Of a DNA stretch of 64,000 bases, positions 23,690-45,642 are shown piece after piece. Every line of letters begins with the position of its first letter. The first letter of the stretch is position 1. The stretch lies in the IMG/VR virus record IMGVR_UViG_3300021185_001231; one strand, 5' to 3'. The notes beneath the pieces are model-generated. The model ran no database searches. It had not been told where the DNA came from and was given only the letters and a program-made list of their open reading frames with translations. Position numbers and translations under genes: made by a program. The stretch comes from a virus.

Positions 23690-23715
23690 AAAAGGGACTC
23701 TTTCGAGTCCCTCTT
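23688..23715. terminator. Bidirectional terminator between convergent genes
   Basis: A6-GGGACTC-TTTC-GAGTCCC-TCTT. Confidence 0.85.
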
Positions 23716-23736
23716 CGTAACACATAACACCGAAAA

Positions 23737-24657
23737 TTAATCTTCAGCGGCCATCTTAGCAAAGTAAGATAAAGTGTCTTCCTCATCAGAGGCAGACTTA
23801 ATCTCTGGTGTGGGTGCTTCAACAATGGTAGGTTCTCCTACCGCTTTAAGAGGAACAGACTGAGCAGATTGACTCAAAGCTTCATTCTTAACTGTCGAAC
23901 CAACACCAGTAGATAGTCCAAGAACCATCTCTAGTTTCTGCTTGAGTTCATCATAAGACTTGTATTGGTTAGGATCTGCATACTCTGATATTTCGTGCAT
24001 AGAGTTGTACGCAGTTTCCAACGCAGTCTCATCACCTTCAAGTAGAGCGGAAGGTGCTTTGAACTCAGACTTGTCATAGTTGCGGTATCCAGCAACGTTT
24101 CTAATCTTAAGTTGGAAGTCAGCACCACTCCAAAGGTCGAATGGGTTTACTGGAGTCTCGCCAGGAAATTCTGGTTGCATAAGATCCATAATCTTATCGA
24201 AGATCTTCTTACCATACTGGTACATGAAGACCTTTCCGTTGTTGGACGGATTTGATGGATCATTCAACACTAAGATGTTAGACACATAGTGTAGGCGACG
24301 CTTCTGTCTGCGAGCGGTTTCTTTATCTTCTTCGATACCGCTATTCCATAAACGAGAGTTTAACTCACCCACTGGATCATTCTGTCCAATACTGGTAAGA
24401 GACTTTTCAATGTACCACTTTCCGGTTGGGCCTTTAAACCCATGATCCCAGTATCTTTGCCAAGGGAGGTCTTGACCTTCCATTGCAGGCAAGAAACGGA
24501 CGACAGCATAACCATTGCCAGACTCATCTACAGTAGGCTTCCAGATGCGATCATCTTGGTACTTGTTGGTTTGTTGATTTGTGCCAGACGCTTCTGTTGC
24601 TGCGTTGACAAGTTTTGAGATGTCCATAGACTTGGACTTTAATGTTGCAAAAGACAT
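23737..24657 (-). CDS. gp32: Single-stranded DNA-binding protein gp32
   Basis: DDRIWKP, GNGYAVVRFLP, GKWYIEKSL, GKKIFDKI, NYDKSEF; acidic tail DTLSYFAKMAAED. Confidence 0.97.
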   Translation of the reverse strand: MSFATLKSKSMDISKLVNAATEASGTNQQTNKYQDDRIWKPTVDESGNGYAVVRFLPAMEGQDLPWQRYWDHGFKGPTGKWYIEKSLTSIGQNDPVGELNSRLWNSGIEEDKETARRQKRRLHYVSNILVLNDPSNPSNNGKVFMYQYGKKIFDKIMDLMQPEFPGETPVNPFDLWSGADFQLKIRNVAGYRNYDKSEFKAPSALLEGDETALETAYNSMHEISEYADPNQYKSYDELKQKLEMVLGLSTGVGSTVKNEALSQSAQSVPLKAVGEPTIVEAPTPEIKSASDEEDTLSYFAKMAAED

Positions 24658-40678: not shown

Positions 40679-40707
40679 ATTATACAACGCCCAACAAGGT
40701 TTGTCAA
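40679..40707 (-). promoter_or_regulatory. Early sigma70-type promoter
   Basis: AAAACGC-TTGACA-N17-TATAAT. Confidence 0.9.
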
Positions 40708-40749
40708 GCGTTTTCTTGAAATTAAATGAAGTTTTTTTTATGTGGAAAA

Positions 40750-40840
40750 TGGCGGAGAGGGTGGGATTTGAACCCACGATACGCTATTAACGTATGCCAG
40801 TTTTCAAGACTGGTGCATTCAACCGCTCTGCCACCTCTCC
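40750..40840 (-). tRNA. tRNA-Ser(TGA)
   Basis: Cloverleaf with long variable arm; anticodon arm CCAGT-CTTGAAA-ACTGG; encoded CCA. Confidence 0.95.
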
Positions 40841-40850
40841 GAAAATATTA

Positions 40851-40934
40851 TGGTGGGGGGAGGTGGATTCGAACCACCGAAGCTTTCGCGTCAGATTTAC
40901 AGTCTGATCCCTTTGGCCGCTCGGGAATCCCCCC
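40851..40934 (-). tRNA. tRNA-Tyr(GTA)
   Basis: TCAGA-CTGTAAA-TCTGA; GTTCGAATC; encoded CCA. Confidence 0.95.
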
Positions 40935-40942
40935 CGATTAGA

Positions 40943-41059
40943 TTAATCTTTGAACTTGTTATCGATCCAACATTTACCGTAGTACAAAATTCCCAACCAA
41001 ACAGAGAAGAGTATTCCGTCTAGGTAACTGAGTGATTCCCAAACATTTATAGGGTCCAT
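40943..41059 (-). CDS. Small membrane peptide (38 aa) inside tRNA cluster, missed by ORF track
   Basis: AGGA RBS; MDPINVWESLSYLDGILFSVWLGILYYGKCWIDNKFKD. Confidence 0.65.
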   Translation of the reverse strand: MDPINVWESLSYLDGILFSVWLGILYYGKCWIDNKFKD

Positions 41060-41158: not shown

Positions 41159-41234
<76 letters not shown>

Positions 41235-41245
41235 ATAAATTTGTC

Positions 41246-41341
41246 TGGTGACACAAAACTCTTCTTTGACCTTATACGTTGCACGTGCATAGTCTCCAAG
41301 CCTTCTGACTAACGGTACCAGTTACCGACCTACTTGGTGTC
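41246..41341 (-). ncRNA. Putative CCA-ending tRNA-like ncRNA
   Basis: 5' GACAC pairs with 3' GTGTC followed by ACCA; three internal hairpins; no canonical D/T loops. Confidence 0.5.
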
Positions 41342-41422
41342 GTGTTTCTATTTAGGATGATTAATCCCATTCTCATCATAGGAGAAACAAATAACTACTA
41401 GTCCGCAATCATAGGACTCGTT

Positions 41423-41498
41423 TGGTGGAGGTATGCGGGATCGAACCGCAGACCTTCGCCGTGCAAGGGCGACGCTCTCCCAGCTGAGCTATACCCCC
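41423..41498 (-). tRNA. tRNA-Ala(TGC)
   Basis: G3-U70 pair; TGC anticodon; encoded CCA. Confidence 0.95.
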
Positions 41499-41502
41499 AA
41501 AA

Positions 41503-41578
41503 TGGAGCTCGGAACAGGAGTCGAACCTGCGACCTGCTGATTACAAGTCAGCTGCTCTACCAACTGAGCTATCCGAGC
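41503..41578 (-). tRNA. tRNA-Thr(TGT)
   Basis: GCTGA-CTTGTAA-TCAGC; encoded CCA. Confidence 0.95.
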
Positions 41579-41595: not shown

Positions 41596-41624
41596 ATTAT
41601 AACACAATAAAAAATATTTGTCAA
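41596..41624 (-). promoter_or_regulatory. sigma70-type promoter for tRNA cluster
   Basis: TTGACA-N17-TATAAT directly upstream of tRNA-Thr. Confidence 0.85.
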
Positions 41625-41627
41625 ATA

Positions 41628-42986
41628 TTATTTTTTATAATTTTCTAAAAAATATTTCAAATCTTCTGGAGTTCCCAATCCCCACATTTTGGAAGCATTA
41701 TGTGTATATATTTTTTTACAATCTTCGATCGCCTGATTAAAAACTGGACACACATAAAACTCATTATTTACTCTAATATTTTTTTCTATCATTTGTTCAG
41801 CATATTTAACAAAATCACTACCACTCTTCCAATAGTAATAACCGACTGTAGCAAGATTACTTATAGGATTTTTTTCCGCAACTTCTGTTACAAGACCAAA
41901 GTTATCTATTTTGGCAAAAGACCATTTTGGATGAGTAGCCTCAAATGTGACAATACCACCGTCAGCATTCTTTTCGTTCATTGAATACATAAACTCCATA
42001 ACTTCCCATTCAACATACTGATCAGAATTGGCAAAGAATAGTGGATTTTCATTGTTTATATATTCTTTTGCTAAAAGTGCGGTACATGCCGCTCCCTCAG
42101 TCATCTTATCCACCTCAATAATTTTGCATTTTGGGGATATTAGTCCTAACATAGTATCTAGGTTATAATCTTCTCTGTGTTCTTTTTGTACTACAAATAT
42201 ATAATTAGCATCTAATCCCAGATTTTCAACAACATTCTGGATCATAGGTTTACCATTCACATCTATCAGTGGTTTAGGAAAAGTGTAACCCGCCTCTTTA
42301 AAACGACTACCAGCTCCAGCCATTGGTATAAGAACATTCAATTTATCATTTTTCCACTTTTTTATCATAGGTGCACCCTCAATTTTTGGGATTATATTAT
42401 GTATATTTGTATTATAAGGATTGTCCACTCGTATATAATTAGCGCGAGATCTTTGTGCGGACAGTAATCCAGCTGGACTATCTTCAACGATTATAGTTTC
42501 TTCCGGCAAAACCCCCATCATAGACATAGCCTTCCAATATATCTCTGGGTGAGGTTTAGCATTTTTGACATCTTCATTGGAAAGAATTACCGAACAATGT
42601 TGTATTATTTTTGCTTGTGAAAGCGAAGTTAAAACCGTTCTTCTTATTGAATTTGAACATACTCCAATTTTATATCCGAGTTTTTCTAACTCTAAAAATA
42701 ACTCACATATTTCTTCTATTGGTTTTTGTTCGGATAACATTTCTCTAGTAAGTTTTTGTTTATTTTCACTTATTTGTGAATGTAGTTTCGGATCTAAACC
42801 CTTACGTTCCGTTAACATATTTAATTTTTGTATAGTTTTTAATCCATCATAAATTGAAAGATGTTCCTTTTCGGTTATAGAATATTTTTCACCTAAAGCT
42901 TTGTTTAAAGCCTTATAATGTATATTTTTAGCATCTACTAATACTCCATCTAAATCAAAGAGAATTAATTTTATAGGACGATTCAT
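41628..42986 (-). CDS. HAD phosphatase / sugar-nucleotidyltransferase fusion
   Basis: FDLDGVL, KPHPEIY, VEDS; then IPMAGAGSRF..PKPLI, EK, LGTPEDL. Confidence 0.88.
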   Translation of the reverse strand: MNRPIKLILFDLDGVLVDAKNIHYKALNKALGEKYSITEKEHLSIYDGLKTIQKLNMLTERKGLDPKLHSQISENKQKLTREMLSEQKPIEEICELFLELEKLGYKIGVCSNSIRRTVLTSLSQAKIIQHCSVILSNEDVKNAKPHPEIYWKAMSMMGVLPEETIIVEDSPAGLLSAQRSRANYIRVDNPYNTNIHNIIPKIEGAPMIKKWKNDKLNVLIPMAGAGSRFKEAGYTFPKPLIDVNGKPMIQNVVENLGLDANYIFVVQKEHREDYNLDTMLGLISPKCKIIEVDKMTEGAACTALLAKEYINNENPLFFANSDQYVEWEVMEFMYSMNEKNADGGIVTFEATHPKWSFAKIDNFGLVTEVAEKNPISNLATVGYYYWKSGSDFVKYAEQMIEKNIRVNNEFYVCPVFNQAIEDCKKIYTHNASKMWGLGTPEDLKYFLENYKK

Positions 42987-44641: not shown

Positions 44642-45642
44642 TACGCTAAACAACCTTTACCATCTAAACCACAAACAGGGCTTTCTTCTTCCTCTTCCCA
44701 TCCCCATTCTCCATCCATACCATTTACAGAATACTCCGTCACTCTTTTTTCAAAGAAGTTATCATGCGAGGCACCATTAAGGACCCAGTCTAACCAAGTC
44801 AATGGGTTATCCTTAACTCCAAACTTCGGTTTCATTCCAAGTTGAAGGAGCCTACGATCAGCGATGTGACGGATGTATTGTTTAACATCGGTTTCATCTA
44901 AACCTTCAATAGTACCCGACTTATATGCAAGTTTGATAAATCGGTCTTCTAACCTAACAGCATTCTTGGCCATCTCATATATCTTGGACTTCAACTCATC
45001 GTTCACGATACGTGGATGCTCTTCACAGAACTCACGGAATAGTTTCGCATTACCCTGTACGTGCATAGTCTCATCACGTATAGACCACTCCACAATTGTC
45101 CCCATACCCTTCATCTTACCGAAACGTTGAAAATTCAATAACATCACGAATGATGCGAACAATGACATACCCTCGTTGAATACGGATTGTGCTAGAACAA
45201 GAGCCAACCCAGTATGAGAGTTTATATTCCCCTCTTTCATGAAGTCTAACTTATCGGCCATTTCACTATATTCTAGGAATGCGTGATGTTCTTCGTCCGG
45301 TAAACCCAGAGTGTCATTTAACAATGCGTAAGCGCGTTGATGAACACCTTCACGATTAGCAAAAGAAGATAACATATTTCTTATTTCATTATTCTTGAAT
45401 TTAGGTATAAGAAGTTCATGATAGTTTTCTCCTACCTGAACATCAGACTGCGTGAAAAGTCTCAATATCTGAGTTATAAATTCTTTCTCTTGTTCAGAAA
45501 GTTTAGTCTTCCAATCCTGAATATCTTCAGAAAGTTCGGCTTCATCCTCTACCCAATGAATCTCTTCGTGTTTTTTTACCATATCTACCGCCCAAGGATA
45601 GACGAAAGGTTTGTATGATTTACTAAATTCTAATAGTGACAT
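44641..45642 (-). CDS. nrdB: Ribonucleotide reductase class I beta subunit
   Basis: FTQSD, REGVHQRAY, EGMSLF, IRDETMH, NFFE.RVTEY. Confidence 0.96.
   Translation of the reverse strand: MSLLEFSKSYKPFVYPWAVDMVKKHEEIHWVEDEAELSEDIQDWKTKLSEQEKEFITQILRLFTQSDVQVGENYHELLIPKFKNNEIRNMLSSFANREGVHQRAYALLNDTLGLPDEEHHAFLEYSEMADKLDFMKEGNINSHTGLALVLAQSVFNEGMSLFASFVMLLNFQRFGKMKGMGTIVEWSIRDETMHVQGNAKLFREFCEEHPRIVNDELKSKIYEMAKNAVRLEDRFIKLAYKSGTIEGLDETDVKQYIRHIADRRLLQLGMKPKFGVKDNPLTWLDWVLNGASHDNFFEKRVTEYSVNGMDGEWGWEEEEESPVCGLDGKGCLA

Follow-up and report, generated by a model that had tools for sequence, protein, structure and literature searches.

RNAC and RNAD of phage T4 were seen sixty years ago, and to our knowledge no role is known for stable small RNAs in phage tRNA operons. 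The literature lists them as species 1 and 2 of the stable RNAs from the T4 tRNA region and still assigns them no role (PMC3014915, PMC9697503); an earlier note on the locus studied here had rightly pointed to such stable non-tRNA species. They are non-tRNA RNAs of 119–139 nt that adjoin tRNA genes in a T4-like myovirus and have no promoter of their own next to them (PMC3014915, PMC9697503). The RNA described here, encoded in a 64,000-nt stretch of viral DNA (IMG/VR record IMGVR_UViG_3300021185_001231; the whole stretch analysed is hereafter the window), shares these features, but its length is greater, it is built of two domains, and some copies lie at a distance from tRNAs, downstream of gp32. 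Position within a phage tRNA transcription unit, flanked by tRNAs, is common to RNAC, RNAD and sequence groups A and B of the new family, and is not found in group C. RNAD ends in ...CACCA, and the group A element could do likewise. Unlike the window RNA, however, RNAC carries a tRNA-type T arm (GGTTCGAATCC), and CM R1 finds no match in the whole T4 genome (NC_000866); run without filters on the T4 tRNA region, it scores no higher than 5 bits (E about 2). On this comparison the placement is analogous to that of RNAC and RNAD, with no detectable homology, and the RNA would represent a second, unrelated family of phage tRNA-operon RNAs beside them.

GOLLD and ROOL are often found near tRNAs in phages and measure roughly 580–800 nt. 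The present RNA resembles them in being phage-borne, structured and tRNA-associated, but it is about 190 nt long and has no Rfam match at E ≤ 10. Like 3′UTR-derived or operon-embedded bacterial sRNAs, it has no detectable promoter of its own and occurs directly past a stop codon. The group C copy extends to the intrinsic terminator of the mRNA, and release of the RNA would need host RNases. Compared with typical seed-pairing sRNAs it is nevertheless much larger and more structured, and a terminator with a U-tail is present only in group C. With tRNAs and tRNA-like RNAs (RF00005, tmRNA, YrlA/Y RNA and viral tRNA-like structures) it has in common a location between tRNAs and, in group A, a short terminal stem followed by ACCA; unlike them it has no cloverleaf, its terminal stem is not conserved, and the CCA is base-paired in a helix.

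We read the tRNA-Ala/tRNA-Asn spacer of the window as encoding a stable, structured non-coding RNA of ~190 nt with two domains, a member of a family absent from Rfam 15 that acts in trans, most likely by binding protein, and we put the probability of this reading at roughly 0.6. Conservation, covarying helices, the transcribed strand, mobility between loci and the absence of tRNA features are established at the level of sequence comparison. The RNA would accumulate as a discrete species, and its invariant loops would mediate an action in trans, most probably the binding or sequestering of a host or phage protein rather than decoding, aminoacylation or tRNA mimicry. The family was not found in Rfam 15 or in the literature searched and appears to be new. 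No Rfam 15 family matches the RNA of any group at or near the gathering score, and the weak overlaps stem from matches centred elsewhere (tmRNA_permuted, E = 3.7, and CLRN1-AS1, E = 5.5, in the window; L20_leader, E = 4.5, in the group C contig L122).

The conserved RNA spans positions 41234–41422 (~189 nt; CM R1 score 208 bits) and fills the spacer between tRNA-Ala(UGC), directly upstream (41423–41498), and tRNA-Asn(GUU), directly downstream (41159–41234; both identified by ARAGORN and Rfam); these and all positions within the RNA given below refer to the minus strand. Homologues of four sequence groups align with it end to end. Because conservation begins just past the tRNA-Ala CCA (AACGAG...) and continues to CCAGAYAAATT just ahead of the next tRNA, we take the whole spacer as the unit. 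The earlier note had marked only 41246–41341 as a tRNA-like RNA, with an acceptor-like stem formed by 41337–41341 (GACAC) and 41250–41254 (GUGUC) and followed by ACCA (41246–41249). Its letters are as given there: the minus strand from 41341 to 41246 is GACACCAAG...TTTTGTGTC-ACCA, opening with GACAC and closing with GTGTC-ACCA. As proposed, the stretch between tRNA-Ala and tRNA-Asn holds a structured, conserved RNA other than a tRNA; the 96-nt boundaries are wrong, since the conserved unit begins ~80 nt further upstream.

In the consensus fold, the 5′ domain would consist of P1, P2 enclosing P3, and P4, and the 3′ domain of one long hairpin (P5–P6–P7), with near-invariant unpaired segments joining the two. 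P1, the 5′-terminal hairpin (41397–41421), starts 2 nt past the tRNA-Ala CCA; its 3′ strand runs into an invariant GACUAGUAGU (41394–41403), and its inner pairs covary (CG/UA/UG at one pair, GC/UA at the next). P2 (41383–41389 with 41343–41349, span 41343–41389) encloses P3 and a conserved asymmetric loop, CUAYGAUGAGAAUG, and covaries between U-A and C-G (5 vs 7 sequences) and also between G-C and A-U. The stem of hairpin P3 (41353–41369) is group-specific (GGAU/AUCC vs GAGG/CCUC). A near-invariant core of about 40 nt (41305–41343), ACGACACCAAGUAGGUCGGUA(A/G)CUGGUA(C/U)CGUUAGU(C/U)AG, holds hairpin P4, the 5′ strand of P5 and an ACCGUUA bulge; it is nearly identical in the four groups, group D differing only in the last few bases (GUUUG). 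P4 itself (41326–41342; CGAC.C/G.GUCG) is invariant and so neither supported nor refuted.

Within the 3′ domain (41245–41321), P5 pairs CUGGU (41317–41321) with ACCAG (41245–41249), and P6 pairs 41298–41309 with 41250–41261, with six of nine pairs changing on both sides. The domain further includes an internal loop (UGGAG/AAAGAAG) and P7 (41291–41294 with 41268–41271), which carries a variable tip (41272–41290). The length of the tip, as aligned, differs by group (A, 19 nt; B, 41 nt; C, 2 nt), a kind of variation that structural RNAs typically show. Conservation also extends beyond the CCA, to GAYAAATT. The three hairpins earlier proposed inside the 96-nt element fit this fold poorly: ACGT/ACGT falls in the variable apical region, where it is missing in one group and different in another, TAGTC/GACTA has no place in the consensus, and GGTA/TACC competes with P4 and P5.

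Two alignments were used to assess the fold. RNAalifold on an unfitted MAFFT alignment gave seven helices with 42 pairs, 10 of which show compensatory changes. In the CM-fitted alignment, 97.4% of cells pair, compared with 33–45% when partners are slid by 1–3 columns, and neither this pairing nor the observed number of two-sided changes was attained in any of 500 shuffles. Fifteen pairs change on both sides (vs 1–5 when slid), a main count that comes from an alignment fitted to the model and that comprises few independent compensatory events, because only four lineages are represented and the 5′ half of group D is that of B. Thermodynamics and a register shift are what argues for P4 and for the larger part of P5, both of which are invariant. 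P5 is kept in all four groups, in C and D through this compensated shift: the change from ACCAG to CCCAG loses the inner U-A pair, and an outer pair is gained through an inserted U in C and an A-to-U change in D. One P6 pair is C-G in groups A and B and U-A in C and D, and next to it groups A, B and C have U-U, U-G and U-A, respectively.

Folded in isolation, the 3′ domain has the same hairpin as its minimum free energy (MFE) structure in group A, most of B, and C, and the architecture is feasible in group D with 16 standard pairs. The many G-U pairs assign transcription to the strand of the tRNAs. For the whole spacer, the MFE is modestly better than that of shuffles (z = −1.38), and the corresponding fold differs from the consensus. 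CUGGU has two conserved possible partners, ACUAG (41398–41402) and ACCAG (41245–41249); the window MFE pairs it with the former and the consensus fold with the latter. A closing helix UCUGGU/ACCAGA was considered and rejected, being present in group B and impossible in A or C.

The four sequence groups comprise about 25 metagenomic loci (IMG/VR and JGI metagenomes), many of which are duplicates, the same record being present in both collections. They were recovered with an invariant 16-mer, obtained by comparison with a relative of the window (G002), and with four further DNA patterns; the remaining pattern matches are coding DNA. The carriers are uncultured marine T4-like myoviruses, the nearest GenBank record being phage C48C1 (54% gp6 identity) and the next nearest Pelagibacter phage HTVC008M. 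Among GenBank phages the spacer has no homologue, and a genome scan found no copy of the RNA in bacterial genomes. A CM search of 47 related viral records and T4 returned known members only, and a separate search of phage C48C1 gave no match. One weak CM match, in G027 (E = 0.014), was discarded because it falls within an ORF of hotdog-fold-like type.

The RNA occurs in three genomic contexts and is always co-oriented with the upstream gene or tRNA. Group A, the window type, lies between tRNA-Ala and tRNA-Asn. Group B lies directly past the stop codon of an ORF, usually 10 nt ahead of a tRNA-Asp, which is lost or truncated in three contigs. In group C an RNA of about 170 nt sits exactly between the gp32 stop codon and the intrinsic terminator (L122:3600–3840), a convergent gene follows the terminator, and no tRNA was found in the flanks scanned (about 750 nt upstream and 1.5 kb downstream). 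Group D (L162 and L163) joins a B-type 5′ half to a diverged 3′ half, with the swap past CCGUUAGU.

Recombination scars adjoin the RNA in B-type phages. L157 (1440–1480, minus strand) retains the first 9 nt of tRNA-Asp, followed by an unrelated ORF, and in the B-type contigs L126 and L129 the tRNA beside the RNA is gone altogether.

The gp32 gene of the window (23737–24657, minus strand) ends in ...DTLSYFAKMAAED, the same residues as gp32 of group C, and has a hairpin terminator alone downstream (23690–23740), without the RNA. Since group C gp32 has the RNA and window gp32 only the terminator, the RNA has moved as a module between closely related phages. Its shift between the tRNA operon and the gp32 3′ region amounts to a natural experiment in close relatives and argues that it is selected for itself rather than arising as a by-product of tRNA processing. 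The nearest of the records compared (G001) lacks the region. An 83%-identical relative (G002) has no tRNA cluster beside its HAD–NTP transferase gene, yet keeps the RNA; the spacer match lies at the very end of its contig and follows a protein gene instead of a tRNA. When the window is compared with B-type phages, no other DNA is as well conserved as the RNA (83–85% identity over 113–123 nt, vs 68–73% in most aligned coding segments).

The gene upstream of the cluster in the window encodes a HAD hydrolase/nucleotidyl transferase fusion (41628–42986, minus strand, 452 aa). Relatives of the fusion protein were found in 243 IMG/VR stretches, of which 80 were kept (57–99% identity), and by this sequence survey the fusion is very widespread in environmental T4-like phages. 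Among the loci fetched, only two near-identical contigs have a tRNA cluster beside the fusion gene; no tRNAs were found beside it in the 78 others.

The RNA is surrounded in the window by six true tRNAs, Thr (41503–41578), Ala, Asn, Asp, Tyr and Ser, all with an encoded CCA according to ARAGORN and Rfam, in agreement with the earlier description. A sigma-70-type promoter at 41596–41624 (minus strand; TTGACA-17-TATAAT with TG, 12/12 consensus positions) is predicted to drive the tRNA/RNA operon, and the RNA has no detectable promoter of its own. It is carried in highly expressed transcripts: in the window and group B this is the tRNA operon, in group C the 3′ region of gp32. Host RNases presumably excise it from them (tRNA 3′/5′ maturation and RNase E). 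Maturation of the tRNA-Ala 3′ end would set the 5′ end of the RNA, RNase P cleavage at the 5′ end of tRNA-Asn would free its 3′ end, and terminal hairpins would protect both.

At the other end of the tRNA cluster, no intrinsic terminator was detected past tRNA-Ser. A second sigma-70 promoter with 12/12 consensus lies at 40679–40707 (minus strand), and the two promoters bracket the cluster. The tRNA-Ser region (40682–40855, minus strand) scores 54 bits against Rfam sX4 (gathering score 70), a score that probably reflects the tRNA-like content of the sX4 model and not a separate sRNA.

Several specific partners or targets were also considered. Mimicry of rRNA was rejected, as the RNA aligns locally to the E. 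coli rrn operon with a lower score than shuffles do on average, and it has no significant complementarity to E. coli rRNA. No convincing antisense target was found in the window: 32 complementary 10-mers are present, compared with about 22 expected, and for the longest matches of this type the strand implies a same-strand repeat with minus-strand genes, not mRNA complementarity. A CsrA-type GGA sponge was discarded as well, the GGA count being, on direct reading, at about chance level. The well-defined covarying fold and the about 40 nearly invariant unpaired bases are useful properties, and the RNA offers a concrete construct for pull-down, probing and deletion work.

The main rival to a protein-binding RNA acting in trans is a role in cis, in which the element would be a platform for processing or stability, or a switch based on the alternative pairing of CUGGU with ACUAG or ACCAG, and would control maturation, decay or read-through of its carrier transcript. 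We regard this as unlikely, though it fares better than the other alternatives. It would fit the constant embedding of the RNA in another transcription unit, directly past a stop codon or tRNA, and the two conserved partners of CUGGU, of which the window MFE and the consensus fold each use one; the conserved A/U-rich GAYAAAUU past P5 could moreover be an RNase E site. The carriers, however, are unrelated (tRNA operon, ORF of unknown function, gp32), and so are the elements downstream (tRNA-Asn, tRNA-Asp, ORF, terminator). Close relatives express the same genes without the RNA, as at gp32 of the window with its terminator only, and ~190 nt with about 40 invariant unpaired bases go far beyond what a processing signal needs.

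It is improbable that the RNA is instead catalytic or ligand-binding, that is, an undescribed self-cleaving ribozyme or an aptamer whose active site or pocket is formed by the invariant loops. Invariant unpaired segments between covarying helices are the usual signature of such RNAs, and the GAUGA block in the P2/P3 internal loop superficially resembles a hammerhead core or a C box. Yet the ribozyme and riboswitch models of Rfam give no match at E ≤ 10, the CUGAUGA of hammerheads is replaced by UAUGAUGA in A and UACGAUGA in B and C, and group C, with its terminator and convergent gene, has no regulated gene downstream. Readings of the GAUGA block as a hammerhead or C/D box were both rejected, because the consensus is not kept across groups.

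We give similarly little credence to the original proposal of a 96-nt tRNA mimic, with an acceptor-like GACAC/GUGUC stem, a discriminator A and an encoded CCA, that would undergo tRNA-like processing by RNase P and 3′ trimming and serve as a decoy for anticodon nucleases or uncharged-tRNA sensors. Its appeal is clear in the window, whose group (A) has a perfect stem and ACCA among tRNAs that all encode CCA, and T4 RNAD, with its CACCA end, adjoins a tRNA as well. In group A, a U at alignment column 196 completes the 5-bp stem and leaves a U-U mismatch in P6, consistent with a lineage-specific gain. The signal itself, however, is not above chance. A 5-bp Watson–Crick stem followed by NCCA (span 55–110 nt) arose in 351 of 5000 dinucleotide shuffles of the spacer (7%) and occurs 133 times in the window, and the 96-nt stretch folds no better than shuffles (MFE −19.6 kcal/mol vs a shuffle mean of −21.5; z = +0.62). 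Scans should therefore treat short terminal stems with CCA beside tRNAs with caution, as these are common by chance.

Comparison across the groups weighs further against a mimic. The 5′ GACAC is invariant, and its proposed 3′ partner is GTGTC in A, GTGGC or ATGGC in B and, as aligned, GTAAC in C and GTATA in D. Only group A thus has a perfect stem; B has one or two mismatches, and in C and D the stem is lost as aligned. Overall, 80% of its cells pair, no change is compensatory, and 7 of 12 sequences lack the A-U pair. Covariation across related phages, which had been suggested as a check, is therefore absent from the proposed acceptor stem. Its 3′ strand covaries instead with GUCAG, as part of P6, and the CCA lies inside the conserved helix P5, with conservation continuing beyond it. 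A mimic with these ends would also discard the upstream 80 nt, which are equally conserved, and in one group the RNA, located downstream of gp32, is remote from tRNAs.

The search for tRNA features points the same way. ARAGORN and Rfam 15 (at the gathering score and at E ≤ 10, including RF00005 and clan CL00001) gave no match over 41246–41341, as the earlier note had predicted, and tRNA and tmRNA models gave none at E ≤ 10 on homologues at four other loci (groups B, C and D). There is no D-arm and, again as first noted, no T arm with a GTTC-type T-loop: the motif GTTCRANNC is absent from the element, and on direct reading the 17 nt ahead of the 3′ strand are unable to form a 5-bp stem with a 7-nt loop. 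Since the stem is uncompensated outside group A, the CCA belongs to P5 and no tRNA model matches, the tRNA-like anatomy belongs to one lineage at most, and it is probably due to chance. As far as its sequence can tell, the RNA is not a tRNA mimic.

A very speculative reading, to which we attach little weight, is that the invariant CUGGUA core would be a docking site for NCCA 3′ ends, like the UGGN bulge of T-box RNAs or the GGU of RNase P loop L15, and would be masked in cis at rest by the RNA's own ACCAG through P5. If so, the RNA would, during infection, capture or sense uncharged tRNA 3′ ends or else retain an enzyme of tRNA processing or repair or a nuclease, which would explain both its affinity for tRNA operons and the two conserved partners of CUGGU.

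Least likely of all is that the locus is not an RNA gene but a small protein gene (the 35-codon ORF 41272–41379, which overlaps the element) or a relic at the level of DNA, for instance a decayed tRNA or a recombination joint, in keeping with a mosaic region that has clear breakpoints (the 9 nt of tRNA-Asp in L157, the swapped 3′ half of group D). The overlapping ORF encodes 34 aa in A but 9 aa in B and D and, in another frame, 17 aa in C. Compensatory changes and strand-specific G-U pairs show that selection acts on the folded transcript, tRNA models pick up no remnant, and the unit is more conserved than most flanking coding DNA.

Two smaller features of the locus deserve mention. Fourteen nucleotides of the variable P7 tip region (GAGACTATGCACGT, 41283–41296) recur identically at 45059–45072 on the same strand, inside the gene for the ribonucleotide reductase small subunit, where ~0.08 matches are expected by chance; the repeat could be a coincidence or a trace of recombination. 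The spacer between tRNA-Asp and tRNA-Tyr is filled by a 38-codon ORF (40943–41059, minus strand; MDPINVWESLSYLDGILFSVWLGILYYGKCWIDNKFKD) with one hydrophobic segment, and three of its four differences from 98%-identical contigs are synonymous, which suggests that it is coding. In B-type phages a different small hydrophobic ORF (MELLDILIVGAVTLLIIYFALFHEED) is found right past tRNA-Asp.
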